Shown piece after piece: positions 2,815-26,792 of a stretch of 50,354 nucleotides of DNA. The notes under the pieces were generated by a model that saw nothing but the letters and a program-made list of their open reading frames with translations, had not been told where the DNA came from and did not search any database. Each line of letters opens with the position of its first letter. Positions within the stretch are counted from its first letter, which is position 1. A program made the translations under genes and the position numbers. This stretch comes from a virus: IMG/VR virus record IMGVR_UViG_3300020138_000002, positions 1 to 50,354 of that record; one strand, given 5' to 3'.

Positions 2815-3663
2815 TCACTCGAAATCTTCGTCGTCGTACAGCAATTCCCCGTCATCGATCGTCGGGATCGGGGCGTTGATCCACCGGGCGTACACGACTC
2901 GACGTTCCGGCATGGACATCTCGTTCCACAGATCGCGAAGCCGAACGACCGCCCGTTCCTGGAAGGACCGGTCGTTGAAGGGGCCGTCAGAGTCGCTATA
3001 AAAGGCCTTGACGATGTGATCGGACACCCGGGAATCGTCCAAATCCAGGTCCAGGTTTGCGTTGTTCATCTGCGAGTTCATCGTTGTGTGGTAGCCGTCT
3101 TGCCAGTTGACCCATGACGCTGTGGCCATGACCAGAGCAAGGCACTCGCCGATTCGACGGGAGTGGATATCCGTCATGTCCTCGCGGATCCACTCGGCGA
3201 GGTTTTGGCGTCCTCTGGTGTCGAGGTAGTGCTCGCTCAACACTCCGATAATGTCTTCGCCGAACGCTTTCCTGGCATCGACAATGCGATGGGTGATGAG
3301 GTTACCGGTCACGTGGGCGATGACGTCCCCATCGCGATAGACCCGAGATTCTGTCGCATCGACGTGTGGTGACCGGTAGATACGTGCTTCTGTCACATTG
3401 GATCGGATGTACGTCGATTCCGTCGGACCCCAGGTCACCTTGTCGGCTGCGATGAAACAGGGGTGATCGTTGATTCTCACCCCATACGTGGTTTTGAGGG
3501 GTTCGCGTCCCGGCCAGATCCTCGTCTCGATGTATTCTTTGATGGACCACCTGTCGTATTCCTGTCGTGCGGTGATCGGGTCGATGCCCCACTGTTCGGG
3601 TTTCTGTAGCTCGTGGATCGGATCGTTGCATTCCGGGCAGGTGATGGTGTTGTTGCTGGTCAT
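2815..3663 (-). CDS. hypothetical protein, N-terminal CPEC zinc-ribbon-like motif and acidic C-terminus (282 aa). Stand-alone moron-like unit.
   Basis: Long ORF, visibly less GC-rich than the flanks, bracketed by hairpins at 3789-3827 and 2695-2734. No motif I can assign. Confidence 0.6.
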   Translation of the reverse strand: MTSNNTITCPECNDPIHELQKPEQWGIDPITARQEYDRWSIKEYIETRIWPGREPLKTTYGVRINDHPCFIAADKVTWGPTESTYIRSNVTEARIYRSPHVDATESRVYRDGDVIAHVTGNLITHRIVDARKAFGEDIIGVLSEHYLDTRGRQNLAEWIREDMTDIHSRRIGECLALVMATASWVNWQDGYHTTMNSQMNNANLDLDLDDSRVSDHIVKAFYSDSDGPFNDRSFQERAVVRLRDLWNEMSMPERRVVYARWINAPIPTIDDGELLYDDEDFE

Positions 3664-7065: not shown

Positions 7066-8325
7066 TCAGCCGCCGTTCGTCCGGGTCCAGAACTCGACGA
7101 TGACTTCGGCGCCTGCCGCAACGCCGACCGCCGTGTAGATCTCTATGCACAGTCCGGGGCCGCACTGGATTGCTTCGACGTACCCGGCGCCCGCGCCGTC
7201 GATGGGCGGACCGTACACGCTGGCCGGGGTATCAACGTTCCGGCCACGCGAGTTGACGCAGGTCATCGTGTTGAGTCCGGTTCTGCCGTCCATGATCAGT
7301 GACCCGTTGGCGGGGATCTCGGCGACGGTGAGGTCCGTGCAGGCGCGGCACGGGTTCAGGTCCGGGAGACGACCACACGGAATCCCCAGTGGATTAGCGT
7401 AGAAGCGGACCACGAGGTTACGGACCGCCAGATTCCCCGCTCGGACACGCACCACCGGGACCACGTCGAGCTGACGAGCAAGCACACCCGGCGGGATCGA
7501 GATCAGTGTCCGGTGAGCGGCGAACGGCTCGGCCGGGTAGCACTCCGGCAACGGCTCGGCCGGAAGCGGCGCGAACCCCTCCGGGACGGGGCACGCAAAC
7601 TGACCAGCGCATTCGTCGTCATCAGGGCACGCTTCATACACGGCCGGAAGGTCCAGCGTGACCTGTTGTCCGTCTGAAGGCCGCACCGAGATCACACGAT
7701 CAGGCGGCGGCGGACGCCACACGTACACGTTCGGCGTCGATAGGGTGACCTCGAACTCGACCCATAGCGGATCCTCCCAATCGCGGTCCATCATCGTCGG
7801 CCCCGACACGACCTCGACCTCGTACAAGTACCGAAGCGGGTCCGGTCCGACGAGCTCCCCGTCATCGTCGACGTCCGGGCAGCACGCGAGCACGCACATC
7901 TCGTGCCCCACACATCCCGTCGCGCACGGAGACGACTCGAACGCGTTCGCCAACCATCCTTGCGCGTACTCCAGACCGCATTCATCCGCGAGAATCGCCG
8001 CGAACCGGATCGTGAACTGTCGGCGTGCCGGCGCCGACGATGTCGCTGTTGTCGCCGACCGGACCGCCTCGGTCATACCGGTGATCTCCAGCCCGGCGAA
8101 CCCGAGCACCATCGCCGACTCCGGTACCGCCGGGTCATACCAGGGCGCGTCAACAGTGATCCCCTCGTAGGGTTCGCCGCTGTTCAGCCACTCTCCGGCG
8201 TCCTCTTCACAGTCCCAACATGTCCCTATCGCAGCACCGCACTCGTCGATTTGCGCACCGTACGCGGATGCGCGGGCTGTCGAGATGACCTCTAGGCCGC
8301 CGATCACCACATAGTCGGGCAGCAT
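7066..8325 (-). CDS. minor tail protein (distal tail protein position), Cys-rich, 419 aa
   Basis: First ORF downstream of the tape measure. Its N-terminus MLPDYVVIGGLEVISTARASAY resembles actinophage Dit-position proteins, from memory. Confidence 0.55.
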   Translation of the reverse strand: MLPDYVVIGGLEVISTARASAYGAQIDECGAAIGTCWDCEEDAGEWLNSGEPYEGITVDAPWYDPAVPESAMVLGFAGLEITGMTEAVRSATTATSSAPARRQFTIRFAAILADECGLEYAQGWLANAFESSPCATGCVGHEMCVLACCPDVDDDGELVGPDPLRYLYEVEVVSGPTMMDRDWEDPLWVEFEVTLSTPNVYVWRPPPPDRVISVRPSDGQQVTLDLPAVYEACPDDDECAGQFACPVPEGFAPLPAEPLPECYPAEPFAAHRTLISIPPGVLARQLDVVPVVRVRAGNLAVRNLVVRFYANPLGIPCGRLPDLNPCRACTDLTVAEIPANGSLIMDGRTGLNTMTCVNSRGRNVDTPASVYGPPIDGAGAGYVEAIQCGPGLCIEIYTAVGVAAGAEVIVEFWTRTNGG

Positions 8326-8348: not shown

Positions 8349-10697
8349 TCACTTGTATTTCGCGATCGTGTCTTCGATTGTTCTGCGAAGCCGTTCCGGG
8401 TCGCCGCCGTCGATATTGATCGTGATGTCGATCTTGCGGTTGTCGTCGCTGCTGCCTGTTTGGGGACCGGCGGCGAGGATCTGCGTCAGTCCGGATTCCT
8501 GCGCGAGCTGTCGGGCACGGTCGGGCCGGGTCAACGGGATGACCACCTCTTTACCGGCTTCGCCGATCATCGCGTAGGTGGTGCTGGTGACGATGCCACC
8601 GTTCGCAAATCCGATCCACGACCCGGCTTCGTCCAGGGCGTTACCGATCGCATCGCCGATGTTTCCAGCGAGGTCACCGATCGCGTCCATGATCTGACCA
8701 GGAAGATCCTTAAACCACTGGACGACATCGCCGAGCCAATCCTTCAGACGATCGAACACGTCCTTAATGTCCTCGATCTTGTCGACGATCCAGTCGATCG
8801 CGCTGCCGAACTCTCCGGTGATGGCGGTGGCGACGTCACTGATCACGCTGATGACGGGGCTGACGACCGACACGATCCCCGACACGATGCCGATAAACGA
8901 CTGAATAACACCGACGACGATCTTGAACCCCTCGATCAGGAGACTGAGGCCGCCGCTGATCACGTCGGCGATCACCGGCAGCAAGTCCTCAAAGATCGGG
9001 ATGAGTGTGTCGGCTACCTGATCGATCAGCTCCAACAGCGGGGGTAGGAGCTGCTCGGTGATCATGTCGCCCATCTCGGTCAGCACCGGGATGAGCGATT
9101 CGGCGAGAGTCTCGTAAAACGTCGCGAAAATCGGGGTGAGACGTTCAATGATCCCGGCGAGCGTGCCGAAGATCGGGGTGAGAATCGAAACGAAGATATC
9201 GGCGAGCGTCTCGATCACCGGCAGCATCGGTTCGAGCACGCTTGTCAAGAGACCAGTGAATGCGGCGATCACCGGGGCGACAGCTTGCGCGATCCCGCCG
9301 ATCAGGTTGCCGACGATGCCGACGAGCTCACCCAGCACCGGAAGAACTGGTGCGACGGCGTCGAGGATGCTTCCGATCGCGCCCGCGATCGATTGGAGCG
9401 CACCGGAATCAGCGATCGCCGCGATCGCGCCGCCGAGCGCGTCGACGACGGTCTCGATCGCGGGCGCGAGTGTCGTTACGACGTCGGCGATGACCGACCC
9501 GAGTGGTGTCAATGCGGTGGCGACGGAGGCCAGAAGCGGGCCGATCGCAGACCCGATCGCCGCCAACGCCTCAAACAGTCCACTAAGGAATTCTTGGCCT
9601 TCGGTCGATTCGAGGAACCGGTCGACCTCACCGAAGACCTTCTCAAGCGTGTCAAGCAGCCCACCGCCCTCAGCGGACGCGGCGCCGAACACGGTCCCGA
9701 AAATCGACCCGACCGCCCCGATAATGCGACCGAGCTGCGAAAACAGTTCAAGCGCGCCCCGAACCCACTCGACAGCCTCACCAGACTCGGCCGCCTCGTC
9801 GAGAAATGCCGCGAAGTCATCGATGACGCCACCGAGTCCGTCGCCGAAATCGAACGCCTCACCGACGACCGTTCCGATATTGAGCAGCGCGTCGAAGAGC
9901 CGCGCGGTCGGCTCAGTAATATCCTCAATGATGTCCTTAAGCGACGCAAACGCGGTGTCGACGAACCCGACAGCGTTATCGCTGGAAGCAACGTCGGCGA
10001 GCGCGTCCACGAGACCGGACGCAGCAGACGCAGCCCCAGTCATTCCCTCCCGGACAGGCCCGATCAACGCAGACGCGACACTGTCCAGATTGTCGGCGAA
10101 CCCGGAGAAGAACTCCTCCTGAACCGCCTCACGCAACGACTGGAACTCCGGCGACAGTCCACGCAACGCCCGAGCCGCCTCCTGCGCGGACGGCGCCAAC
10201 CCATCCAGACTCTCCTCGAACTCGTCGGCGTCACCGGTGACGGCGGCCTCGAACGCGTCACCCACACCCGCCAAAGCCACCCGGAATGTGGACATTCCCG
10301 CGGCTGCGACACCCGCCACCGCAGGTAGAGCCGCGAGCGCACCGACAGCCGGAGCCAACGCCGTCACCAGCCCGGCCGCCGCCGCCGCCAACCCACCGAT
10401 CGCGCCCGCCATCGCCGTGATGCGGCCCGCGCTCCCCAACGCTCCACCGATGTTCGGGATGCGGAGGTTGCTGAGTCCGCGCCGGAACCCGTCGGAGTAG
10501 GCGTCGCCTGCGTCGCGACCGGCGCGAGCGAACCGTCCTCGTGCGTCCCGGAGTCGCCCGTTGGCGTCGCGGAATAGTCCCGGTTCGATTTCGACGGTGA
10601 TCTTCTCATCACGGTGTCGATTAAGGATTCGTTGTAGTGACGGCCCGAATGTCGAACCGTCCGCGACGACATCTGCGGCTACCTCACCAACAGGCAC
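8349..10697 (-). CDS. tape measure protein (782 aa)
   Basis: Longest tail-block ORF. It has long Ala/Gly/Ile/Leu-rich helical repeats and the C-terminal motif GFANGGIVTSTTYAMIGEAGKEVVIPL, typical of actinophage tape measures. GTG start at 10697 after a G-rich RBS. Two chaperone genes precede it. Confidence 0.9.
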   Translation of the reverse strand: MPVGEVAADVVADGSTFGPSLQRILNRHRDEKITVEIEPGLFRDANGRLRDARGRFARAGRDAGDAYSDGFRRGLSNLRIPNIGGALGSAGRITAMAGAIGGLAAAAAGLVTALAPAVGALAALPAVAGVAAAGMSTFRVALAGVGDAFEAAVTGDADEFEESLDGLAPSAQEAARALRGLSPEFQSLREAVQEEFFSGFADNLDSVASALIGPVREGMTGAASAASGLVDALADVASSDNAVGFVDTAFASLKDIIEDITEPTARLFDALLNIGTVVGEAFDFGDGLGGVIDDFAAFLDEAAESGEAVEWVRGALELFSQLGRIIGAVGSIFGTVFGAASAEGGGLLDTLEKVFGEVDRFLESTEGQEFLSGLFEALAAIGSAIGPLLASVATALTPLGSVIADVVTTLAPAIETVVDALGGAIAAIADSGALQSIAGAIGSILDAVAPVLPVLGELVGIVGNLIGGIAQAVAPVIAAFTGLLTSVLEPMLPVIETLADIFVSILTPIFGTLAGIIERLTPIFATFYETLAESLIPVLTEMGDMITEQLLPPLLELIDQVADTLIPIFEDLLPVIADVISGGLSLLIEGFKIVVGVIQSFIGIVSGIVSVVSPVISVISDVATAITGEFGSAIDWIVDKIEDIKDVFDRLKDWLGDVVQWFKDLPGQIMDAIGDLAGNIGDAIGNALDEAGSWIGFANGGIVTSTTYAMIGEAGKEVVIPLTRPDRARQLAQESGLTQILAAGPQTGSSDDNRKIDITINIDGGDPERLRRTIEDTIAKYK

Positions 10698-11949: not shown

Positions 11950-12441
11950 CTACGTGCCCGTGACGCGGGTCCCCGGAGGCGACATCGCCTGGATATCCCA
12001 ACCGGGGTGTTGCGCGAGGGTCTCCCGGATCGCGTTGGCGATGAACGGGTCGGGGCGGATGCCCTGCGAGCGTTTCGCGAACACGTACCCGGCGCCGCCC
12101 GGTGACGCGACGCCGCGGCCGCCGCGCCACCGCAGCGCCTTCCGACGGACCGGCACAATGTCCCTGCCCTGCGGGCCGTGACGTCCGGTGCCCTCGTGGT
12201 GAAGTTGCCACAGGTACCGTCCGCTGTCCCCGGCCTGGACGTTGCTCGACACGTGCACGGTGACGGTCGTACCGGTCACCTCGGTGTCGAGGGCCCACGA
12301 GTTCGCCAGCCGTCCTGAGTCGCGTGGGCTCGTCTGGACGAGTTTGTTACGCAGCGTGTTGGCGACGTCTTCGGCTGCTTGGCGGGCGATCCGCAGCGCT
12401 TCACGGGCGGCCTCGTCGTAGTTGACGCGCGCGTACCCCAT
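11950..12441 (-). CDS. HK97 gp10-like head-tail joining / neck protein (163 aa)
   Basis: Start trimmed to ATG 12441, which forms an ATGA overlap with the upstream stop codon. RLANSWALDTEVTGTTVTVHVSSNVQAGDSGRYLWQLHHEGTG...GIRPDPFIANAI matches the gp10-family layout as I recall it. Confidence 0.6.
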   Translation of the reverse strand: MGYARVNYDEAAREALRIARQAAEDVANTLRNKLVQTSPRDSGRLANSWALDTEVTGTTVTVHVSSNVQAGDSGRYLWQLHHEGTGRHGPQGRDIVPVRRKALRWRGGRGVASPGGAGYVFAKRSQGIRPDPFIANAIRETLAQHPGWDIQAMSPPGTRVTGT

Positions 12442-12953
12442 CAGGTCGGCCGCCGGAATCGGACCGTCGTGATCCCGCCGACGGCCATGGACTGCGGTCC
12501 GTACGGACGCCACGCCGTGACTGTCATCCGGGGGCGTCGGATCGATGCCGCCGCCGCCGCGACTGCCTGACGGTCCCACTCGACCTGAAGCGTTTCGGCG
12601 GCGATGACCTCCGGGTCAGGTAGTGACACGTCATCGGGTCCGGTGACGGTGTGGCACCGTAGGACCCCGATTTCGACGTCCACCCACAGGAGCGGTGTGC
12701 ATGGTGTCGTCGTGGTCGCGGTTTCTTGGACGGTTCGGATCCACACGCGGCCTTGCGAGTCGGGTCCGCGTAGGTCTGCGCCGCGTTGCGTCGGTGACTG
12801 GGCGACGATCACGTCGTACCGGCACGCCGCCGCACCCCGGCATTCCATCTCGGTTTCGATGGCGGCGGCGAGACGCTGCATGACCTGGTAGGTGACGCCG
12901 ACCCGTTGCATCGATGTCACCACTTCGGTGCCGTTGTCGGCGGTGAATGTCAT
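12441..12953 (-). CDS. head-tail connector protein (170 aa)
   Basis: Start trimmed to ATG 12953 with RBS GGAGG, 8 nt upstream. It forms an ATGA overlap with the amidase stop codon. The Cys/Trp pattern (CRYDVIVAQ...LLWVDVEIGVLRCH...WRPYGPQSMAVGG) resembles connector proteins of actinophages. Confidence 0.5.
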   Translation of the reverse strand: MTFTADNGTEVVTSMQRVGVTYQVMQRLAAAIETEMECRGAAACRYDVIVAQSPTQRGADLRGPDSQGRVWIRTVQETATTTTPCTPLLWVDVEIGVLRCHTVTGPDDVSLPDPEVIAAETLQVEWDRQAVAAAAASIRRPRMTVTAWRPYGPQSMAVGGITTVRFRRPT

Positions 12954-14590
12954 CCGGACAACCTCCATCCGGGCTGGTACAGGGTGTCGTACCACGGGCG
13001 AAGCCGCTCAAACGTGCGCGCGGCGGCGAGAACGCGCTCGTCGGACAGGCGTGGTCCGACGATCTGCATTCCGATGGGGAGACCGTCATAGCACCCGGCC
13101 GGGATACTGACGGCCGGTTCACCCGTGAAATTCTGCAAGCAGGTGCAGCACCAGCCGATGTTCGGGTCGACCGCGACGCCGCCGACGGTGGACGGGCCGA
13201 CGGTGGACCCGTCACCGGCGTTGATCAACTGCTGTGGGAGTGCGGCGAGTGTCGGGCCGATGATCAGGTCATACCCGTTCGGATCACCGTTGACGCGCCA
13301 CGCCGCATCGAACGCCGACCTGATCGCCTGGGTGTCGGACTCGATGTCGCGGATCCTGGTCGCGGGAAGTGATTGCCCGAGCTGGACAAGCTCGTACCAT
13401 TCCGGCGTGAGTTTCTCTGGCGCTGCGAGGACATCGATGCCGAAACCGGCGAAATAGTTGACGACACCACCCGCATAGAGTGTCCCCATTGATTCGTTCC
13501 ACCACGTCGACACATCACCCTGGGTGAGCGGTTCGCCGGTGGTGTGAATGATCGCCTCGTCGAGACCGAGGTGGACCCCGGTCTCGACGACTGCTCCGGC
13601 CTGCTCGAACACGCACCCGACCTGGTTGATCACGTCGCGGATCGGCTGTTCGACGGGGTAAATGTCCCACGTGTCGGTGATCCCGATGCGAAGGCCTCGG
13701 ACGCCGCGCTCTAGTTGCGCCTCGAAGTTGTACCCGGTCGACGACGACGGGACACCCGAGAAATTGGGCTTCGTGACGCTGAACGGGTCGGGTGGGTACG
13801 GCTGGACCATGAGGTCGGCCATGACCGCGACACCGTACACAGTCCGATCCATCGGTCCTGAGTGGAGGAACGGGTTGACGGGGAACGGCGGCACACCCTG
13901 CGGAATCAGACCAGCAGTCGCCTTGAAACCGACGATTCCGGTCGGCGCGGCGGGGATACGGATCGAACCGCCCGCGTCGGATCCCTCCGCCGACGCGACC
14001 ATGAACGACGCGAGCGCGGCGGACGCGCCACCCGACGAACCGCCAGGATTCAGACCGAGCCGGAGCGGGTTCTGCGTGTCACCCCACGCCGGTGACGCTG
14101 TGATTCCCTTGTGCCCGAACTCTGGGGTGGCGGTTTTACCCAGGCTGATCGCGCCCGCGTCGAGCAAACGCATCACGTAGATCGCGGTGTACGGCGGCAG
14201 GAACGGGTAGTACGTCGGAGGTGGATTCGTGGCGCTCTCGGGCGCGAACATGGCGCTGCCGAACGTGTTCGGAACGTTCATCTCCCAATCGAAAAGATCC
14301 TTCGTCGCGATCGGGAGACCTTCGAGCTTGCGGGCGGTCCCGTTGTCGTACCGCTCATCGGCTAGTACGGCCGCCGCCCGAGCCTCATCGAACTGGGTGT
14401 GAACGAACGCGTTGACAAGCGGATTCAGCCTCTCGATCCGGCCAATGTACGCCTCTAGGGCGTCGACGACGCGGATCTGACGCGTCCTGAAATACGAGAG
14501 AAGGCGCTGCATCGGGAGGTACGCAATGTCTTCGCCGGTTGGCGGGTTAGGTGCACACGCATTCCACGAAGGTCCACATTGAAAAGTCAT
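12950..14590 (-). CDS. amidase-signature (AS) family amidase, GatA-like fold (546 aa)
   Basis: Complete AS signature GGSSGGASAALASFMVASAEGSDAGGSIRIPAAPTGIVGFKATAGLIP, plus the upstream catalytic-Lys context LPIATKDLF. These are the Ser-cisSer-Lys triad positions. Translationally coupled to both neighbours. Confidence 0.85.
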   Translation of the reverse strand: MTFQCGPSWNACAPNPPTGEDIAYLPMQRLLSYFRTRQIRVVDALEAYIGRIERLNPLVNAFVHTQFDEARAAAVLADERYDNGTARKLEGLPIATKDLFDWEMNVPNTFGSAMFAPESATNPPPTYYPFLPPYTAIYVMRLLDAGAISLGKTATPEFGHKGITASPAWGDTQNPLRLGLNPGGSSGGASAALASFMVASAEGSDAGGSIRIPAAPTGIVGFKATAGLIPQGVPPFPVNPFLHSGPMDRTVYGVAVMADLMVQPYPPDPFSVTKPNFSGVPSSSTGYNFEAQLERGVRGLRIGITDTWDIYPVEQPIRDVINQVGCVFEQAGAVVETGVHLGLDEAIIHTTGEPLTQGDVSTWWNESMGTLYAGGVVNYFAGFGIDVLAAPEKLTPEWYELVQLGQSLPATRIRDIESDTQAIRSAFDAAWRVNGDPNGYDLIIGPTLAALPQQLINAGDGSTVGPSTVGGVAVDPNIGWCCTCLQNFTGEPAVSIPAGCYDGLPIGMQIVGPRLSDERVLAAARTFERLRPWYDTLYQPGWRLSG

Positions 14591-14592
14591 GG

Positions 14593-14805
14593 TTAGTCCC
14601 TAGGGTTCGGGTAGCCGAGGAAACGGATGTGAATGTTTTGACAGGTCGGATACTCCGAACCGCGCGGAACCTTCCCGCGAAGCTCCCGAGCACACCGGGT
14701 CAGATCACCGTCAGTGCCCCACCGGATCTCCCTACCGCCAGGGCCGGTAGTCCAATACCGGTACAGCGCGGCAGGCATCCGGAACTGCTGCGGATCGATG
14801 CTCAT
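14593..14805 (-). CDS. small conserved virion-module protein (70 aa), function unknown
   Basis: The ORF overlaps the adaptor stop codon by 4 nt. Sequence YWTTGPGGREIRWGTDGDLTRCARELRGKV...CQNIH resembles a small family I recall from actinophage head modules. Confidence 0.5.
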   Translation of the reverse strand: MSIDPQQFRMPAALYRYWTTGPGGREIRWGTDGDLTRCARELRGKVPRGSEYPTCQNIHIRFLGYPNPRD

Positions 14806-15506
14806 AGGCCCATCCCTCCAATGTCTCGGTACGGCCGGTGATGATCGGCAACGAACACGGCGGCCTGACGCTCAGCCCGGAACGGGTTGACGGTCTGCAA
14901 CCAGTCGTCGACAGCAGGAATCGACAGGTAGTCGGCAGCGGTGGCGTCCGGCGGCTGGTACTGGTACGACGCGCCGTCCATAGTCGCCGACTGGAGACGA
15001 CGTGAGGACACGCCGCACTGCCTAGCGCATTCACGCGCCAGTTGAGCGACGAGCGCAGTCACGGCACGCGACGCCAATGGCGTCACCGGCGACCCTTCCA
15101 GGTAGGTGATGTCCCACGTCCCGGGCATCGTCGCGTCAAGCGACAGGTCCTGGCAGGGCGGGAAACACCAGCCGTCGGCGAGGACGATCGTCCCGTCCGA
15201 GTAGAGACGCCATGCCTGGCGGGGGACGTGCTCACCGTGGATACGGATGCGTTCCACGCACGTCACCTGACCGTTCCCTACCCGGATCGAGCAGACCGGT
15301 GAGCACCCGCATACGCCCTGACACAGGTCACCCTGGTCGCTGCGGCATGGACGGACCGTGTACCGGCATTGGCCTACGGTCCGTCCGCTCGCCGCCCACA
15401 GCATGCTCGACGCCATGGGTAGGAACCGGTCGATGACGTCGGGGTCCGTGGGCCAGTCGTCGGGGACGCACGTCTCGTCTAGCGGCCACGGCTCACACGT
15501 CGTCAC
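14802..15506 (-). CDS. head-to-tail adaptor (234 aa)
   Basis: N-terminus MTTCEPWPLDETCVPDDWP...ASSMLWAASGRTVGQCRYTVRPC is the characteristic C-x-WP...C...LW..SGR..G.C...VRPC pattern of actinophage adaptors. Confidence 0.7.
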   Translation of the reverse strand: MTTCEPWPLDETCVPDDWPTDPDVIDRFLPMASSMLWAASGRTVGQCRYTVRPCRSDQGDLCQGVCGCSPVCSIRVGNGQVTCVERIRIHGEHVPRQAWRLYSDGTIVLADGWCFPPCQDLSLDATMPGTWDITYLEGSPVTPLASRAVTALVAQLARECARQCGVSSRRLQSATMDGASYQYQPPDATAADYLSIPAVDDWLQTVNPFRAERQAAVFVADHHRPYRDIGGMGL

Positions 15507-15553: not shown

Positions 15554-17527
15554 TTAGCTTTTCTTCTTCGACCGTTTCGCGGTGGCCGACTCGGCCAGTG
15601 CGGCCGCAGTGGTCGCCGTGACCGACGCCGACGGCTCCGAATCCGTGTACTCGGTGCCGTCGCCGATCGCGGTCACACGCAGCTGGTACTCCGTCGCCGC
15701 CGTCAACCCGGTCGCCGAACCCGCCGGGTCCGTCGGCTCGGTCTCATCCGCCGTCCACGTCGTCCCATCAGCCGACGACTCGATCCGGTACGCGGTCGCA
15801 TTCGTCACGGCGTCCCACGTCAGCGGGACCTCTGTGGCGGTCGGCGTCCCAGCGGCGACACCAGTGGGCGCGCCCAACTGGACCGGCTCTGGCGGTGGCG
15901 CCTCCGTGACCGTGATCGTCACGTCCGGACTGGTGACGCCGCCGAGCGTGGCGCGCGCAATGTACTCGCCCGCCGCCGTACCGGCCGGGATGACCAGCGC
16001 CGTCGCGGGGAATGCGCCGGAGGCGTCAGCGGTGACGTCGGCACCGACGATCTCGTCGGTCTCCGTGGCGATCCCGACCCGACCGGTCGAATCGGCCGGG
16101 AATCCGGTGCCGCTGATCGTGACCGTGTCACCCGGCTCCGCTTCGGTCACATCGGGCGTGATCTGCGGGTCCGGTGGCGGCGTGGACGTCACCGTCAGAT
16201 CCACGTCGTCGACGGTCACACCCTCGTATTCGGCGTGGACCGTGTACGCCCCGGCGGCCTGCCCAGCGGGTACGACCAGTGGCGTATCCGGTAGGACACC
16301 GGTGGCGTCCGTGGTGACGTCGGCGCCGACGACTTCGGCCGCGGCGTCGTCCATGATGCTGACGCGACCCGCAAGATCGGTCGGGAAGTCGGTGCCGGAT
16401 GCGGTCACGGTTCGGGCGGCTTCGTCACCGCCCGAGTCGACCTCGGTCGGGGACGCGGTGAACACCGGCTCGACGGGCGGCGTGGACGTGACCGTCAACG
16501 CGACATCGTCGACGACGACGCCCTCATATTCGGCGTGGACGTGGTAGTCGCCCGCCTCCTGACCAGCCGGAACGACCAGCGGAGTCGACGGCAGAACACC
16601 ATCGGGGCCGGTCGTGACGTCCGCCCCGACGACTTCCGTGCCGCCTGATCCCGGTGCGCCGGTCATGATGCTGACGCGTCCGGCGAGGTCGGCGGTGAAC
16701 CCGGTGCCGTCGACGGTGACGGTACGTCCGGCCTCATCATCCGCGGAGTCGACCGTGGTCGGTGCGGCGGTGAGGACGGGCTCGGCCGGGGTCTCCGTCA
16801 CAGTGATCGTGACGTCCGGCGACGTCGCATCGCCGACGGTCGCCCGCAACGCAAGGTCACCGGCAGCCGTTCCGGCGGGGACGACGAGCGGCGTTCCGGC
16901 GAATGCGCCGTCGGCGTCGGTCGTGACCAGAGCTTCGACGACCGCCGTACCGTCGCCCGCGTACAGGCCGACGGTCCCGGACGTGTCAGCGGGGAATCCG
17001 GTCCCGGATGCGGTGACGGTCCCACCTGGCTCGACCTCGGTCACATCCGACGTGACGATCGGATCCGGGGGCGTGACACCGGTGACGGTCAGTCCGGTGA
17101 GGTCGATGACGACCGCTCCACCGGACAGGACCAGGTGATATGCGCCTGGGTCCGCGTCGTCGGGGACGGTGAGCTCGGTCGACGGGATCGCTCCGACGGT
17201 GTCAGCGGTCACCGGGGTCTCGACCAGTACCGTTCCGCCTTCCGTTCCTGCGGGTCCGGCGACGATCGCGAGCGTCCCGGCCGATCCCGGCGCCAGACCG
17301 GACCCGTCGACGGTGACGGTGCCTCCCGGCGCAACCTCGGTGGCGTCAGCGGTCGTGACCAGGGGTACGGAGAACGGTGCATCAAGGACGGTTCCGGAAC
17401 CGACGGGTTCGCGCTCGAGCTCAGCTTCGGCGGGTGCCGGAGTCGGTGGGTAGGTCTTCGTATCGGTCCCCTGATCGGGGAGCCCGGTGATGGGCGGGTC
17501 GGTGTCCCACGTGAGCTGTACGGTCAT
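15554..17527 (-). CDS. virion surface protein: five tandem Ig-like repeats plus one FN3 domain and a basic tail (657 aa)
   Basis: Start trimmed to ATG 17527 with RBS GGAGAAGGAGGAGG, forming an ATGA overlap with the upstream gene. Five units of 90-100 aa follow the pattern TVT(A/V)(S/D)GTGFPAD..G.V......VVGADVTTD..G....TPLVVPAG.AAG.Y. Then comes an FN3-like LTWDAVTNATAYRIESSADGTTW...EYQLRVTAIG, ending in KRSKKKS. Confidence 0.75.
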   Translation of the reverse strand: MTVQLTWDTDPPITGLPDQGTDTKTYPPTPAPAEAELEREPVGSGTVLDAPFSVPLVTTADATEVAPGGTVTVDGSGLAPGSAGTLAIVAGPAGTEGGTVLVETPVTADTVGAIPSTELTVPDDADPGAYHLVLSGGAVVIDLTGLTVTGVTPPDPIVTSDVTEVEPGGTVTASGTGFPADTSGTVGLYAGDGTAVVEALVTTDADGAFAGTPLVVPAGTAAGDLALRATVGDATSPDVTITVTETPAEPVLTAAPTTVDSADDEAGRTVTVDGTGFTADLAGRVSIMTGAPGSGGTEVVGADVTTGPDGVLPSTPLVVPAGQEAGDYHVHAEYEGVVVDDVALTVTSTPPVEPVFTASPTEVDSGGDEAARTVTASGTDFPTDLAGRVSIMDDAAAEVVGADVTTDATGVLPDTPLVVPAGQAAGAYTVHAEYEGVTVDDVDLTVTSTPPPDPQITPDVTEAEPGDTVTISGTGFPADSTGRVGIATETDEIVGADVTADASGAFPATALVIPAGTAAGEYIARATLGGVTSPDVTITVTEAPPPEPVQLGAPTGVAAGTPTATEVPLTWDAVTNATAYRIESSADGTTWTADETEPTDPAGSATGLTAATEYQLRVTAIGDGTEYTDSEPSASVTATTAAALAESATAKRSKKKS

Positions 17528-18093
17528 GCCCCTCCTCCTTCTCCTTGTGTGGCGGGTCCCCATGTTGCGAGCGCGGTGTACCCGGTCGGGTCGCCCGGAT
17601 CCGGGCTGATTGTTATGTCAAGTTCATCGATTGGTGGCGGTACGTCAGTAGGCCCCCAAATCGCCATGGCCGTGTACCCCGTCGGGTCGGACGGGTCCGG
17701 ACTGATCCGCAAATCGAGCATCTCGGACAGCGGGACCTCGAATGAGATCGTGACGTTGCGGGACGGGTCATCTTCGTCGACGATCAGGGCCGTATGCGTT
17801 CCTTCCTGCCCGGTCTCGTAGACGTGCGACAGTGTCCCGGTCGCTGGCTGACCCGCCTGTAGGTCGCCGCCGTCCCACCGGACCGACACGGTCGAACCGC
17901 TAGTGTTTTGCCACGTCAGGAGAGCCGTGTACCCGGTCGGGTCGGACGGGTCACGCTCGACGGACGCGATGATGTCCTCCGGACAGCCGGCCAGAGAGAC
18001 CAGCGCCATCGCCCGCTGCTCACCGACCGTAGCGACCGCGAGAACTTCGGGGCAGCCTCGCGTGTACGTGTGCGGAATCTGGTAGTCAGCCAT
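17524..18093 (-). CDS. virion-module protein with three DPxDPTGYTA motifs (189 aa)
   Basis: Start trimmed to ATG 18093, forming an ATGA overlap with the upstream stop codon. Contains ERDPSDPTGYTALLTW, ISPDPSDPTGYTAMAIW and ISPDPGDPTGYTALATW. Confidence 0.6.
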   Translation of the reverse strand: MADYQIPHTYTRGCPEVLAVATVGEQRAMALVSLAGCPEDIIASVERDPSDPTGYTALLTWQNTSGSTVSVRWDGGDLQAGQPATGTLSHVYETGQEGTHTALIVDEDDPSRNVTISFEVPLSEMLDLRISPDPSDPTGYTAMAIWGPTDVPPPIDELDITISPDPGDPTGYTALATWGPATQGEGGGA

Positions 18094-19163
18094 CAGTCGC
18101 CCCAATCAATCGTGGGCTGTCCGGTCGCGCCGGTCACGGTCCCGACGACGTCGAGCGGTACAGCACCCGACGACGGCTCGATCGTGAACCCGAGCGTTTG
18201 CGGTAGGCACCAGTGCTCGCCTCGGTACAGGCGCGGGTTACTCTCAGGCCAGATCCCGAGGTTGTGGCAGCCCTCGTCGACGTACTGGTAGCACACCTCT
18301 TCGTCCGCGCTGAACGTCTGCGTCGGGGACCCGTCGCCGAAATCCACCACCCACATTCCGCCGTCGGCCAGAACCTGGACGCACATCTGCATCGCGTTGT
18401 CGCCCGGCCGGATGAACACCAGCGGGGCAGCAGGATTGGACAGCGGTGTCGGACCGCATGTCGGTTCGGGCGGGGCGACATCAACGGTGGTGGCGCGTTT
18501 GCCGGAGTTGCGGGCGACGGGTGTGATCCATTGCCCGGGCATTGGTGGCGCTCCGGGGTTGAGTTGGACGTCGTAGGGTCCGCGTCCCCAGGAGTTGGTG
18601 ACGTTCGCCGTCGCCGTCACCGTGAACGGGGTCGCTTCGCTACCGTAAGTGAAATCTCCGGATTCTTGGAACCCGGACATGTTGTAAAACCCCAGGTAGC
18701 CCCACTCGCCTTCACCGATCAGATCCTGCTGATCGTCAGGCGTCTCGCATCCTCCGGTCGACGAATCATCACGACCCATCCACCCCTCCATCGCGGTGTT
18801 CCGCCTCGACAAACCGGTGGTCTCATCCCAACCGACCTGGTCAAACAGGTGGTCGAACACTGGCGAGTTCGCTTCGTTCAACGCGCTCATCATCGCCGGG
18901 TCGACCGAACACAGACCCATGGTGATCGTGTAGTTGAGGATCTGCGGCGTGACGGTTCGTGTCCGGCAGACACGGCCCGACGGGCGGACCAGCTGCGGCG
19001 ACTCCGGCTCGTTCACGTTTCTCGTCACTTGGACGCTAATCGGCTCATCGACCACCCACGTCGAGTTCGGACCGTAAATCGGCCGACCACAATTGTCCAC
19101 AAGAGTGAACCGGATGACCTCGAAAAACGTCGGCGAGAACGTCCTACAACGGATAGGCATCAC
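18093..19163 (-). CDS. structural protein with a C-terminal PKD/Ig-like domain (candidate major tail tube or decoration protein), 356 aa
   Basis: Beta-rich N-terminal part (FEVIRFTLVDNCGRPIYGPNSTWVVDEPISVQVTRNV...ITMGLCSVDPAMMSAL). The C-terminal VVDFGDGSPTQTF matches the PKD WDFGDG signature. Start is GTG 19163 or ATG 19160, overlapping the upstream stop codon. Confidence 0.45.
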   Translation of the reverse strand: MMPIRCRTFSPTFFEVIRFTLVDNCGRPIYGPNSTWVVDEPISVQVTRNVNEPESPQLVRPSGRVCRTRTVTPQILNYTITMGLCSVDPAMMSALNEANSPVFDHLFDQVGWDETTGLSRRNTAMEGWMGRDDSSTGGCETPDDQQDLIGEGEWGYLGFYNMSGFQESGDFTYGSEATPFTVTATANVTNSWGRGPYDVQLNPGAPPMPGQWITPVARNSGKRATTVDVAPPEPTCGPTPLSNPAAPLVFIRPGDNAMQMCVQVLADGGMWVVDFGDGSPTQTFSADEEVCYQYVDEGCHNLGIWPESNPRLYRGEHWCLPQTLGFTIEPSSGAVPLDVVGTVTGATGQPTIDWGD

Positions 19164-19464: not shown

Positions 19465-20448
19465 TCATGGGGTAGCGGTCAAATCGACATTGACCGCGAC
19501 GTACGGGCATTGGATTGACACGGTGTACGCGCGCTCGGCGAGGACGAGCGACCGGTTACGTCGGTAGTCGTATCGTGCTTCGTCGGGTGTGATCGTGATC
19601 GGTCCGCGCCAGACCCGGACGGCGCCGGTCCCGTACAGCCACGCGCTGGCGAAGTCGGGCGTGTCGTCGAGGGTCGGCATCTCTGCGGGAGCGGTTCCCG
19701 GAGCGACGCTGACGTATCCGCGGCCGAATGCCCACCCGTGACCGAGCTGCGTGACCAGGCGAGATGCTTCCCGGCGCTCCCAATCCTCGAACCACGGGTA
19801 GACCCATGACGGCGCGTGGATCACGCCGGGTCCGCCGTAGTCCCGCATCCCCCACTCCAGGGCCGCCAACGCCGTCTTCGGCGCCACCGGGTCAGTCCCG
19901 ACGGGCAAGACCGGAGCGGACGACAGGTCAGCGACCGACCATTCCGCGAGCGCGGTATACCCGGTCGGGTCGACCGGGTCGGGACGGATCGTCAGGTCCA
20001 TCCCGCCTTCGCCCGTCGGAGGCCCTGCCAGGAACGGTGACGCGCCGCACGACCCGGTCATTACCGCGTACTCGACGGCAGCCCACTCGAGCGCTTCGAT
20101 GCGTTCACGTGCGCGCCGTTCAGCGTTGGCGATCGCGTGCGTTCCGAAACAACGCGGGCCGGTCGCGACGATCGAGAACGACGCGGATTCCACCCATTCT
20201 TGGCCGTGCTGGTCAGCGAATTTGTCGCCGGTGTGGTCACAGTCATGCGACCAGCAATTCAGCCGTCCACAGTTGTTGACTTCGTGGGTGACGCCACGCA
20301 TCGACAGTCGGTCACCGGGCGACAGGTTCTCCGACGGTGATGTCTCCTCCGTCAAGAATGCTTGCGATTGGAGACCGTACCCGCGGACACGGTCATCGGG
20401 GACCCGTGACGGGTCGATCAGGGCCGGTGGTCCTGTGATAGCGGCCAT
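19465..20448 (-). CDS. HK97-fold major capsid protein candidate (327 aa)
   Basis: Strong RBS GGGAGGGGGTGAGGAATA-ATG. Layout: ...FSIVATGPRC...ARERIEALEWAAVEYAVMTG...ALAALEWGMRDYGGPGVIHAP...LVTQLGHGWAFGRGY...WLYGTGAVRVWRG...YDYRRNRSLVLAERAYTVSIQCPYVAVNV. This matches the conserved C-terminal pattern of actinophage HK97-type capsid proteins, from memory. Confidence 0.55.
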   Translation of the reverse strand: MAAITGPPALIDPSRVPDDRVRGYGLQSQAFLTEETSPSENLSPGDRLSMRGVTHEVNNCGRLNCWSHDCDHTGDKFADQHGQEWVESASFSIVATGPRCFGTHAIANAERRARERIEALEWAAVEYAVMTGSCGASPFLAGPPTGEGGMDLTIRPDPVDPTGYTALAEWSVADLSSAPVLPVGTDPVAPKTALAALEWGMRDYGGPGVIHAPSWVYPWFEDWERREASRLVTQLGHGWAFGRGYVSVAPGTAPAEMPTLDDTPDFASAWLYGTGAVRVWRGPITITPDEARYDYRRNRSLVLAERAYTVSIQCPYVAVNVDLTATP

Positions 20449-20490
20449 TATTCCTCACCCCCTCCCTGTGCTGTAGCGATGGCCATCTGG

Positions 20491-22356
20491 TCATCCCGTC
20501 GTCGCGGCGAGCGCCCGCAAGGCCGTGAGTTCTTCCGCGGTGAGGCCGGTGACCGGGTTGATCCCGGCGCCGCCAGCATCGCCGCCGCCGCACGGGTACT
20601 CGAACAGCGAACCGGATCGACCGGCCGTGCAGATGTCGAGCGTGAGGTGGACCGCTTCGTAGCAGTGCGGGATGAGATTCCACTCAGTCTCGGCGAACCA
20701 CTCGAGCTGACGGTTCTGTTTCTGCAGGTCAAAATCCCAACGGGCGCGGATGTCGAGGAAGTCGTCCCGGACACCAGCGAATGTCCCTTGAGGCCAGATC
20801 AGCAGTTCCATTGTGTCCGGGTAGACCCCGTTCTCCAGCGAAACGTCGGATCCGATCCACGTCCGCATTGCCGGGTCGGGGACGTCCACCAGGGCGGTCT
20901 GCCACGGCATCTGAGGCCAGAAACGAACGGTCATACCGTTGCTGAGGATCGTGTTGATCGGGTCGCGCGTGAGCGTCATCATCGTCAGGTCGGCCCCGAC
21001 GCGTTTCGCGGCGTCCGCCTGAATCGCCGCGTATGCCCAAAATGGAATTGCGACGTTCCATATTGTCGACTCGTAGTTGAGCAGCGTCCGCGCCGAAATC
21101 GACATGATCGCGAACCCGATCTTCTCCTTCAACGCCTGCAGGATCCCCCACCCGGCGGTGTCCCACCGCAGCTCACCGTTCTGGGAGTCGGCGATTTCGA
21201 TCGCCGTCGACAGCATCTGCCAGTTGATCCACATGTCGTAAATCAACTCGAACTTACGAATCGCGTCGTCAATGGACTCCGGGAACGCCTTGCGCTGCAG
21301 CGTCCCCGAGGTGACGCAGATGTGGCAGATCCGGTTACGGTGGTCCACCCACGTCGGGCAGTCGATGTGCGTGCACGCCTTCTCCGTGCCGTCTTGGTCG
21401 CGCTCAATCTCTTCCTGCTCGGTGCGGCATTCGATTCCCGCACCCCACATGGTGCCAATCGACGGCGACACCGGCAGCTCGACGCCCCCGCGCTCGGCCG
21501 CGATCATCGGGATCGAGTCGCCGAACCTGCCCCACGGGGCCGGGACCCGGCAGAACTCGTACAGCTGTGTGGACGGCGAGCAGAAACCGTTGGCGAATTT
21601 CTCGCTGTGGTACGCGATGGCGTCCTGGAGGACTGCACCGGCCTGCTGCCTCGACATGTTCGCTCCGACGCGGAACGGGTTGGCGCCTTCACGAGCTTTG
21701 AATTGGACCAGTTCGATCCCGGTCGCCGCGCTCGACCCGGCGTTACGCAGCAGGTCCATCTGCCTGTCGACGTGTCGGGTGAGGTCGGCCATGGTGTGGA
21801 GTTCGCCGCCGGAGCCGCCCGCGAACGCCTGGTAGTAGTCGTTAGCGGCTTTCGCGTTGGCGAAGCTGGCGGCCGCCCCGGGACGCAGCGTCATTTTGAC
21901 CTGCTCGGGGTCACGACGACCACCACCGCCGCGGGCCTTGAACGCTTCGGCGGAGATCAGGTCACCGGTGACGGGAACGTCACCGCCGACGTCGTTGCTG
22001 TCCGCCTGGTCATTTTCGAGCGTCACCGCTCCACCTCCATCATCGGTGTTCTCTGTCTCGTCGGCGTCGTCGGTCGCCTCCAGTTCGGCCGCCGCATCGT
22101 CGCCGGTACCGGTGTCGTCGCTGTTCTCCGGTTCGGTCGCTGGTGCCGTCGCATCGACCAGGACACGGACCGCCCGGACCGCTTCGGCGGTGACCGTCGG
22201 GTCGGTGTCGACCGTGGCGGCCATGTCCCGGATCCGTCCGCGGGCTGCCTCGTGGATCTCGGCGGCGTCAACGCCGCGGTCAGCGAGGAACGACCGGACG
22301 GTGTCCGCGCTGGCCTGCTGCTCGATGATCCACGTGATCAGTTCGTCGCTGGTCAC
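20491..22356 (-). CDS. large capsid-module protein: acidic N-terminal extension of about 190 aa plus a capsid-like domain of about 430 aa (second major-capsid candidate), 621 aa
   Basis: GTG start forms a GTGA overlap with the upstream small ORF. It is the next large ORF after the protease/scaffold gene, separated from it only by the low-confidence small ORF 22353..22601. The C-terminal block ...WDFDLQKQNRQLEWFAETEWNLIPHCYEAVHLTLDI shares the D..N...(L)..AE......A.... ending seen in the 327-aa protein and in lambda gpE/HK97-like capsids. Confidence 0.45.
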   Translation of the reverse strand: MTSDELITWIIEQQASADTVRSFLADRGVDAAEIHEAARGRIRDMAATVDTDPTVTAEAVRAVRVLVDATAPATEPENSDDTGTGDDAAAELEATDDADETENTDDGGGAVTLENDQADSNDVGGDVPVTGDLISAEAFKARGGGGRRDPEQVKMTLRPGAAASFANAKAANDYYQAFAGGSGGELHTMADLTRHVDRQMDLLRNAGSSAATGIELVQFKAREGANPFRVGANMSRQQAGAVLQDAIAYHSEKFANGFCSPSTQLYEFCRVPAPWGRFGDSIPMIAAERGGVELPVSPSIGTMWGAGIECRTEQEEIERDQDGTEKACTHIDCPTWVDHRNRICHICVTSGTLQRKAFPESIDDAIRKFELIYDMWINWQMLSTAIEIADSQNGELRWDTAGWGILQALKEKIGFAIMSISARTLLNYESTIWNVAIPFWAYAAIQADAAKRVGADLTMMTLTRDPINTILSNGMTVRFWPQMPWQTALVDVPDPAMRTWIGSDVSLENGVYPDTMELLIWPQGTFAGVRDDFLDIRARWDFDLQKQNRQLEWFAETEWNLIPHCYEAVHLTLDICTAGRSGSLFEYPCGGGDAGGAGINPVTGLTAEELTALRALAATTG

Positions 22357-26318: not shown

Positions 26319-26792
26319 CTACTCCTGCCACGATCGTTCAGCGCCCGCTGATGCGGCTCGAGCGCGCGTGACGTCGTTGATTGCCTCGGTGGTGGACGCG
26401 ATGGTCCCGTGCACGGTGTTTACCGCGGCGGCGGCGGAGAGCCATACGACGAGTTGTGTGCCGCTCCAGTCGTGTCCTGGCCACAGGATGTAGACGACGG
26501 CGAAGACGATGAGTGAGATCCACCAGCCGATGCACCAAGCGCACGAGACGAATGTTTCCGCTGGTCCTTTCCGGTCTTTGGTGTGGTCGGCGATGGTGAC
26601 GGTCACGATCTCGTCGTCGTTCTCGTTGTCGGCGTCGATCGGCGGGAGGTCATCAACAACTTCGGGCTGTTTGTCGACACGGTGACGGACCCACCTGCGG
26701 AGGGGCGCGGTGATGACGTCCCGGGTGATGAGGCGGGTGGCACGGGCAGATATGGCGGCCGCCGCGAGCATCATGATCCACTCCGCATACAT
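26319..26792 (-). CDS. integral membrane protein, DUF1360-like (157 aa)
   Basis: N-terminal TM helix followed by RATRLITRDVITAPLRRWV, then FVSCAWCIGWWISLIVFAVVYILW and a further hydrophobic helix. This resembles DUF1360 as I recall it. Inserted between terL and the portal gene. Confidence 0.6.
   Translation of the reverse strand: MYAEWIMMLAAAAISARATRLITRDVITAPLRRWVRHRVDKQPEVVDDLPPIDADNENDDEIVTVTIADHTKDRKGPAETFVSCAWCIGWWISLIVFAVVYILWPGHDWSGTQLVVWLSAAAAVNTVHGTIASTTEAINDVTRARAASAGAERSWQE

Follow-up and report, generated by a model that had tools for sequence, protein, structure and literature searches.

Amidases of the amidase-signature (AS) family are common in soil bacteria. Here we consider one encoded by a virus: a 546-amino-acid (aa) protein whose gene lies on the minus strand, at 12950..14590, of a 50,354-nucleotide stretch of DNA (IMG/VR virus record IMGVR_UViG_3300020138_000002, positions 1 to 50,354). 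We call this stretch the window; it is essentially the whole of a ~50-kb, high-GC genome of siphovirus type, and the amidase gene sits inside its block of head-tail connector genes. AS amidases and phage accessory enzymes are both of known kinds, and the notable part of this case is the strength of the selection acting on the gene. An earlier note, made from the sequence of the window, had drawn attention to the gene, described its product as GatA-like and leaned towards a virion-associated enzyme acting on peptidoglycan. Overall, that interpretation is partly supported by the analysis given here.

Several described systems invite comparison. Closest is the aryl acylamidase 4YJ6/4YJI, which has the same Ser-cisSer-Lys triad and single-domain soluble architecture, although the two share only ~31% identity and the phage clade carries a Cys-containing N-terminal extension and two insertions. 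The context of the aryl acylamidase is catabolic, whereas that of the window enzyme is viral. AS enzymes of this branch hydrolyze anilides and other xenobiotics promiscuously (PMC11741061). The nearest cellular clade consists of Streptomyces amidases (P0009 and P0011; loci L005 and L006), which likewise have no leader peptide but are chromosomal, lie beside biosynthetic genes and lack the N-terminal motif and insertions of the phage clade. GatA belongs to the same superfamily and shares the triad and overall fold; in contrast to a true GatA, the window protein fails the equivalog model, its C-terminal half is unaligned by sequence, and no GatB or GatC was recognized in the window.

AS proteins have also been described in settings other than catabolism. 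Tse8 is an AS-family type VI secretion system (T6SS) toxin of Pseudomonas aeruginosa (10.1101/733030; PMC12283126), and so an AS protein used in biological conflict and not in housekeeping. Tse8 binds the transamidosome and is delivered by the T6SS, whereas the window protein is closer in sequence to aryl acylamidase. QsdB, an AS-family member with the K-S-S triad, hydrolyzes N-acyl-homoserine lactones and illustrates that natural signaling amides and xenobiotics are among the substrates of the family (PMC3676327); it is proteobacterial, its substrate class is atypical of actinobacteria, and the comparison with it is made at family level only. The cell-wall amidases of phages (Amidase_2, Amidase_3, CHAP) are phage-encoded and hydrolyze amide bonds, as the window enzyme is predicted to do, but their folds and mechanisms are unrelated and the window enzyme has neither such domains nor a wall-binding module. 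Finally, the gene resembles an accessory gene (moron or auxiliary metabolic gene) in being absent from the corresponding junction of the phages Pipefish and CaiB and in occupying different loci in different phages. A classical moron has its own promoter and terminator, however, and the window amidase has neither. A literature search on AS amidases or PF01425 in phages and viruses found no described role for the family in phages; the earlier note had been aware of none in phage particles.

An intact amidase-signature hydrolase

The gene and the stretches of it that are discussed below are as follows.

12950..14590, minus strand: AS (PF01425) amidohydrolase gene, putatively of the aryl-acylamidase-like subfamily, 546 aa, ATG start (open reading frame list, Pfam, PDB phmmer, AlphaFold2, Foldseek)
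14513..14590, minus strand: residues 1-26 (MTFQCGPSWNACAPNPPTGEDIAYLP), an N-terminal extension peculiar to the clade that contains the motif CxPxWxxC (alignment A1)
14300..14302, minus strand: codon of the predicted catalytic Lys97, in the motif IATKDLF, residues 94-100 (position check and alignments)
13946..14044, minus strand: AS signature stretch, residues 183-215, GGSSGG...GSDAGGSIRIPAA (alignments A1, A2 and A3)

The product matches the Pfam family Amidase (PF01425) far above chance: E=8.8e-66 and 223 bits (cut-off 27), over profile positions 1-445 of 445. The signature opens with GGSSGG at residues 183-188, where cis-Ser185 is encoded at 14036-14038, and closes with GSDAGGSIRIPAA at residues 203-215, where the nucleophile Ser209 is encoded at 13964-13966. 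The 24 residues that separate the two serines are the usual spacing for AS enzymes, and the protein contains the family motifs GGSS(G/S)G and GxDxGGSIRxPA together with the Ser-cisSer-Lys triad. K97, S185 and S209 are invariant across alignments A1-A3, which hold phage and cellular relatives (A1 comprises 17 sequences and also served as input for the structural model). The earlier claim of an intact AS frame with a correctly placed triad therefore stands, and the possibility it had raised against itself, that the triad residues were misassigned, falls away. The product is an intact AS hydrolase and is predicted to be catalytically competent.

The AlphaFold2 model (pLDDT 85.4, pTM 0.89, with low confidence at residues 1-13) confidently predicts the AS α/β fold. 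When it was compared with known structures by Foldseek, the best 50 of 109 matches (E<=0.001) were all AS enzymes, with aryl acylamidase 4YJ6 at rank 1 (E=9e-44, TM 0.82/0.91) and GatA, biuret hydrolase, NylA, peptide amidase, urethanases and FAAH behind it. A phmmer search of PDB sequences also gave 4YJ6 as the closest match, at full length (E=5e-70); the runners-up stood at E=1e-40 by phmmer and at TM 0.76 by Foldseek. The aryl-acylamidase-like branch is thus a putative assignment, made on best-match status only. Specificity cannot be transferred from aryl acylamidase because no NCBIfam equivalog cut-off was reached (the top model, PRK06169, scored 263 bits against 506). We also tried and rejected an identification as GatA: the model TIGR00132 scored 151.7 bits against a cut-off of 481.1 and aligned residues 35-333 only, and phmmer alignments to GatA were confined to the N-terminal half. 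“GatA-like” is accordingly right for the superfamily and wrong for the enzyme.

Two features set the phage proteins apart. First, the N-terminal CxPxWxxC extension is kept throughout the phage clade and is absent or different in cellular relatives. Second, alignment reveals two short insertions in the phage clade, at ~residues 117-129 and 276-287. Judged by eye on the alignment, the phage amidase has no N-terminal leader or signal peptide; RRxLL Tat-like leaders are found in some cellular relatives (Jiangellaceae, Dactylosporangium and Micromonospora). PF01425 is the sole Pfam match of the protein, and the PHROG family that it matches has no known function. Pfam showed no wall-binding or tail domain and none for capsid targeting, and neither Pfam nor PHROGs showed an Amidase_2/3, CHAP, M23 or glycosidase catalytic domain, in agreement with the earlier statement that this is not a cell-wall amidase of the Amidase_2/3 type.

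Relatives and purifying selection

A large protein search placed the query in a tight clade, in which five sequences are 77-84% identical to it and two are 61% identical. Beyond this clade come Streptomyces amidases (49-52%) and then a broad soil-bacterial amidase family (~40%), and in a neighbor-joining tree the phage clade is sister to the Streptomyces group. Among bacterial genomes sampled at one per species, no homologue of the amidase exceeded 50% identity. A tblastn search of 50,697 GenBank phage records gave no homologue in any cultured actinophage; its only matches, at ~26%, were to jumbo phages or to fragments lacking annotation. When IMG/VR and JGI metagenomes were scanned with the single sequence there was no match, and alignment-based scans of the same collections returned the 61% lineage only.

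The gene occupies the same adaptor/neck junction, always tightly packed, in the related metagenomic phage contigs L001 and L002 (49.5 kb), L004 (27 kb) and L012, and is not unique to the window. Compared with the window, the amidases of these syntenic contigs are 82-84% identical in amino acid sequence, against 30-60% for the virion proteins on either side. By the Nei-Gojobori method, nonsynonymous divergence (dN) is about 0.13-0.17 for the amidase and 0.35-0.74 for its neighbors, which means that the amidase protein changes 3-5x more slowly than the surrounding virion proteins. Synonymous divergence (dS) of the amidase runs from 0.9 to saturated, the same range as in the neighbors, and its dN/dS across the syntenic phages is ~0.05-0.17. 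These sequence comparisons show much stronger purifying selection on the amidase than on the structural genes. Composition agrees with a long residence: in the window the GC content, the GC content at third codon positions (GC3) and the codon adaptation of the gene lie within one standard deviation of the genome, and its GC3 matches each phage's own across GC3 0.55-0.85. Identity, dN/dS and GC3 match together indicate that the gene was already in the common ancestor of these phages and has been vertically inherited.

One member of the group is unusual in composition: L004 has a GC3 of ~0.56, against 0.78-0.85 in its relatives, with gene order kept and an amidase that is 84% identical. The difference implies that the lineage has gone through a large shift of host or of composition.

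Outside the syntenic group the gene is found at other loci. The 61% orthologue is carried by a 49,245-bp IMG/VR viral genome (L016, a contig identical to L099; L003 belongs to this lineage too) whose tail genes are 35-44% identical to those of the window. There the amidase lies ~2.3 kb past the tail-fiber gene, between open reading frames (ORFs) of the opposite strand, and has its own ribosome-binding site; a stand-alone amidase gene was seen only in this genome. A second clade, at 41-45% identity, comprises phage-like contigs (L010, L014, L015 and L011) with the gene at yet other loci. In the first three of these it sits amid Sak4/RecT, PD-(D/E)XK exonuclease and repressor-like genes (an early region), and its neighbors include an α/β-hydrolase and a GmrSD_C nuclease. 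In L011 it is just upstream of an adaptor homologue, and on a longer contig from a sister sample LPMO_10 and FAD amine oxidase genes precede it.

At that locus of a more distant phage (P0014 contig, sample ERR3697022; L011), LPMO_10 comes first, then the FAD amine oxidase, a 107-aa ORF and finally the AS amidase; the adaptor homologue is found further downstream, beyond a DUF1707 gene on the opposite strand. The closeness of a flavin amine oxidase to an AS amidase is reminiscent of the amino-acid 2-monooxygenase/amidase pairs, for example IaaM/IaaH.

The Streptomyces sister clade (two species) adjoins one shared biosynthetic cluster with genes for an AMP-ligase, KAS III, class II DAHP synthase, GNAT, epimerases and SnoaL, and at one of the two loci the amidase is translationally coupled to KAS III. 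In a third Streptomyces genome (L007) the amidase lies within an integrase/Prim-Pol/GmrSD island. A short GmrSD_C gene (DUF1524-type nuclease; 9144-9809 in L007 and 12317-12886 in L014) adjoins the amidase in L007, L014 and also L015, an adjacency that may be coincidence or may mark a neighborhood of conflict genes.

The connector junction

The neighbors of the amidase on the minus strand, in the order of transcription, are as follows.

14802..15506, minus strand: head-tail adaptor (phrog_783, E=1e-42; ~30% identity to the annotated adaptors of Pipefish, CaiB and others)
14593..14805, minus strand: 70-aa ORF between adaptor and amidase (phrog_6439, E=4e-12)
12441..12953, minus strand: first downstream neck gene, 170 aa, a putative assignment (junction; orthologues in L001, L004 and L012; profile match to Pipefish gp24 / CaiB gp22)
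11950..12441, minus strand: HK97 gp10-like gene, tail-completion/Neck1 (Pfam PF04883, E=2e-7; phrog_5)

These genes form a serially coupled chain in the late operon, as reading of the junctions confirmed. The adaptor stop and the start of the 70-aa ORF overlap as ATGA. The TAA of the 70-aa ORF is followed by “cc” and then by the amidase ATG, which leaves a gap of 2 nt. The amidase TGA overlaps the neck gene ATG at 12953, again as ATGA, with GGAGG 9 nt upstream, and the neck gene TGA overlaps the ATG of the gp10-like gene at 12441 as TGATG. From 12.9 to 15.0 kb the minus strand showed no terminator-like or promoter-like site. The position within the connector block, the 2-nt gap, the downstream ATGA and the tight coupling to virion genes were all reported earlier, and all of them hold.

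The 170-aa product of 12441..12953 has no family match. Compared with the gene that abuts the adaptor in Pipefish (gp24) and CaiB (gp22) it gave an hhalign probability of 58% (E=1e-4), and it is probably orthologous to that post-adaptor gene. In both phages the adaptor gene directly overlaps the next neck gene with nothing between them; therefore the amidase and the 70-aa ORF represent an insertion at this junction. The connector region is an insertion hot spot in this lineage.

The two inserted genes differ in their distribution. The 70-aa ORF is variable: it has no tblastn match in the syntenic contigs, and L001, L004 and L012 lack it at this position. Its phrog_6439 domain is widespread in actinophages (152 GenBank records), where it stands alone or within genes whose annotation reads capsid maturation protease/MuF-like fusion or portal. 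In L016 a homologue lies at 7730-7999 on the minus strand, ~2 kb from the amidase and on the opposite strand to it.

Other genes of the region vary as well. In L001, the 84%-related phage, a 34-aa ORF at 9141-9245, with a Pfam match to Acb2_Tad1_hairpin, lies directly before the adaptor, and a four-gene island at 12989-15213, partly on the opposite strand and with a MerR/HTH_17 regulator, separates the neck genes from the tape measure. The window has two extra genes between the major tail protein and the adaptor (15554-18105, minus strand), both absent from Pipefish and CaiB: one encodes a 193-aa protein with three “DPSDPTGYTA” repeats, and the other a 669-aa protein of repeated TIG/fn3-like modules, whose likely start is the ATG at 17527, in ATGA overlap with the preceding stop.

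What the enzyme may do

By a narrow balance we favor the view that the protein is a soluble amidohydrolase, the product of a long-fixed accessory gene, whose target is a small amide inside the infected cell, and that it is not part of the virion. We infer the cytoplasmic location, the small-molecule substrate and the absence from the particle on three grounds. First, the orthologues of related phages sit outside the structural operon. Second, modules for structure, wall binding or export are missing from the protein. Third, its nearest characterized and cellular relatives are small-molecule enzymes. The gene is an old insertion at the adaptor/neck junction in one lineage of uncultured high-GC actinophages, kept there by strong purifying selection. 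Having no signals of its own here, it would be translated by coupling from the late structural transcript, and the enzyme would be present in the cytoplasm late in infection, probably at roughly the modest level of a neck protein. Its likeliest action would be C-N hydrolysis of a small amide, for example an N-acyl-arylamine or an aryl/alkyl carboxamide metabolite; a role as virion building block or cargo seems improbable. Possible partner enzymes (FAD amine oxidase, GatB/GatC, the deazaguanine pathway) were sought in the window and none was found.

Three points weigh against a cytoplasmic small-amide enzyme. The ~50-kb genome has no recognized canonical endolysin, and the amidase is its only recognizable C-N hydrolase. 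A peptide or a cell-wall amide may also be the substrate. And the identical slot in the connector block of four contigs could reflect a functional link to assembly and not hitch-hiking. More ambitious roles can be imagined, namely a new kind of phage weapon that either hydrolyzes an amide antiphage metabolite or immune by-product, or modifies the wall as an entry or lysis factor by removing peptidoglycan amides; taken as a whole, we regard this idea as unlikely.

The first form of it, a counter-defense enzyme, is a sub-case of the small-amide explanation: the enzyme would destroy a host amide that blocks infection. The target could be an antiphage metabolite made by an actinomycete (the host or a neighbor), or an amide-bearing signal or by-product, nicotinamide from NAD-depleting immunity being one example. 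It would fit strong purifying selection that is seen in phages only, with no homologue above 50% identity in the bacterial species set, and a sister clade that adjoins a Streptomyces biosynthetic cluster; elsewhere the gene keeps company with variable, conflict-type genes (the GmrSD_C nuclease, the α/β-hydrolase, the repressor region), and QsdB shows that an AS enzyme can hydrolyze a bacterial signal (PMC3676327). Late, coupled expression is, however, odd timing against a defense that acts early, and a literature search on phage countermeasures to Streptomyces chemical defense found no precedent. A small-molecule defense signal was the last of three substrates proposed in the earlier note; its small-molecule part fits best, while we consider the defense part rather improbable.

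The second form is the one towards which the earlier note leaned: a virion- or lysis-associated enzyme that would deamidate peptidoglycan (D-iso-Gln, amidated meso-diaminopimelic acid), or act on a capsule or teichoic amide, for entry or release. The fixed adaptor-neck position with its translational coupling speaks for such a role, as do the failure to recognize a canonical endolysin anywhere in the genome and the occurrence of the neighboring 70-aa domain in MuF/protease fusions of other actinophages. Other observations speak against it. Related phages carry their orthologues outside the structural block; the protein shows neither a wall-binding or tail domain nor one for capsid targeting, and has no leader and no holin neighbor; its nearest relatives are small-molecule enzymes; and the 70-aa ORF is missing from the other syntenic contigs. 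We know of no AS-family member that acts on peptidoglycan. We doubt this reading more than the last, and the lean towards it was not borne out.

It is highly improbable that the protein is a GatA mimic that, in the manner of Tse8, docks on the host GatCAB transamidosome and either replaces GatA or poisons the complex. Actinobacteria rely on GatCAB for Gln-tRNA and Asn-tRNA, and host GatB and GatC may be partners of the phage amidase. The superfamily is shared, the fold superposes on GatA with a TM of ~0.75, and with Tse8 there is already one AS protein whose target is the transamidosome (10.1101/733030). But the GatA model and alignments fail as described, aryl acylamidase is a far better match, gatB and gatC were not recognized among the window ORFs scanned with Pfam, and a fully conserved triad under strong constraint favors catalysis over mimicry alone. 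A recent, functionless passenger from a host chromosome, the origin that the earlier note had named as fatal to its own case (a unique, recent, host-like insertion), is refuted by the sequence data: the gene is an insertion relative to distant annotated relatives, but it occupies the same locus in four diverged phages at a low dN/dS, its composition has ameliorated to each genome and is not foreign, and its homologues in the bacterial species set never rise above 50% identity.

The genome around the gene

The source contig measures 50,361 bp. The gene order on the minus strand is that of a structural module. The large terminase is followed by a DUF1360 gene, portal, MuF, “hexamer” capsid, “pentamer” capsid and major tail protein; then come the 193-aa repeat protein, the 669-aa fn3/TIG protein, the adaptor, the 70-aa ORF and the amidase; and after the amidase there are two neck genes, two small genes, the tape measure and minor tail proteins. 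Elsewhere in the genome there are genes for recombination proteins of the ERF and YqaJ types, for a C5 methylase, for HU and for a protein with a WDGH domain. Neither an integrase nor a tRNA was found in the window. Proteins of the module are ~30% identical to those of Mycobacterium cluster-B-type (Pipefish), Gordonia (CaiB), Streptomyces and Saccharomonospora phages. A megablast search with 10 kb around the amidase gave no match among GenBank phages, and the genome therefore has no cultured close relative.

The capsid genes form a pair at 19465-22356 on the minus strand (621 aa, phrog_777, and 327 aa, phrog_779), which matches the CaiB (Gordonia) annotation of a “major capsid hexamer protein” and a “major capsid pentamer protein”. 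The DUF1360 protein (26319-26792, minus strand) is in an unusual location, between the large terminase and the portal. At 2815-3663 on the minus strand, after the tail-fiber gene, an acidic ORF of 282 aa has a low GC content (0.57) and an N-terminal CPEC motif; searches of Pfam, PHROGs, PDB sequences and GenBank phages gave no match to it.

Endolysin, lysin B and holin domains were searched for with Pfam and PHROGs among the ~50 window ORFs, and none was found. Four large ORFs of unknown function were also compared with PDB sequences by phmmer, and three ORFs were searched by tblastn, again with no endolysin found. This seems to be a complete phage genome whose lysis genes escape recognition.

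Significance

The locus is a clean example of an enzyme gene fixed by translational coupling within a head-tail connector operon. A small clade of uncultured phages has kept the amidase intact through synonymous saturation and a GC3 drift of 55-85%, and the strength of this constraint means that its activity matters to the phages that carry it. If the enzyme serves ordinary nitrogen or xenobiotic metabolism, it would be one more auxiliary metabolic gene. If it is a phage weapon or wall factor, it would be the first role of the AS family in phage biology, and a substrate that is a defense metabolite, a signal or a wall amide would make it a new class of phage-host interaction.

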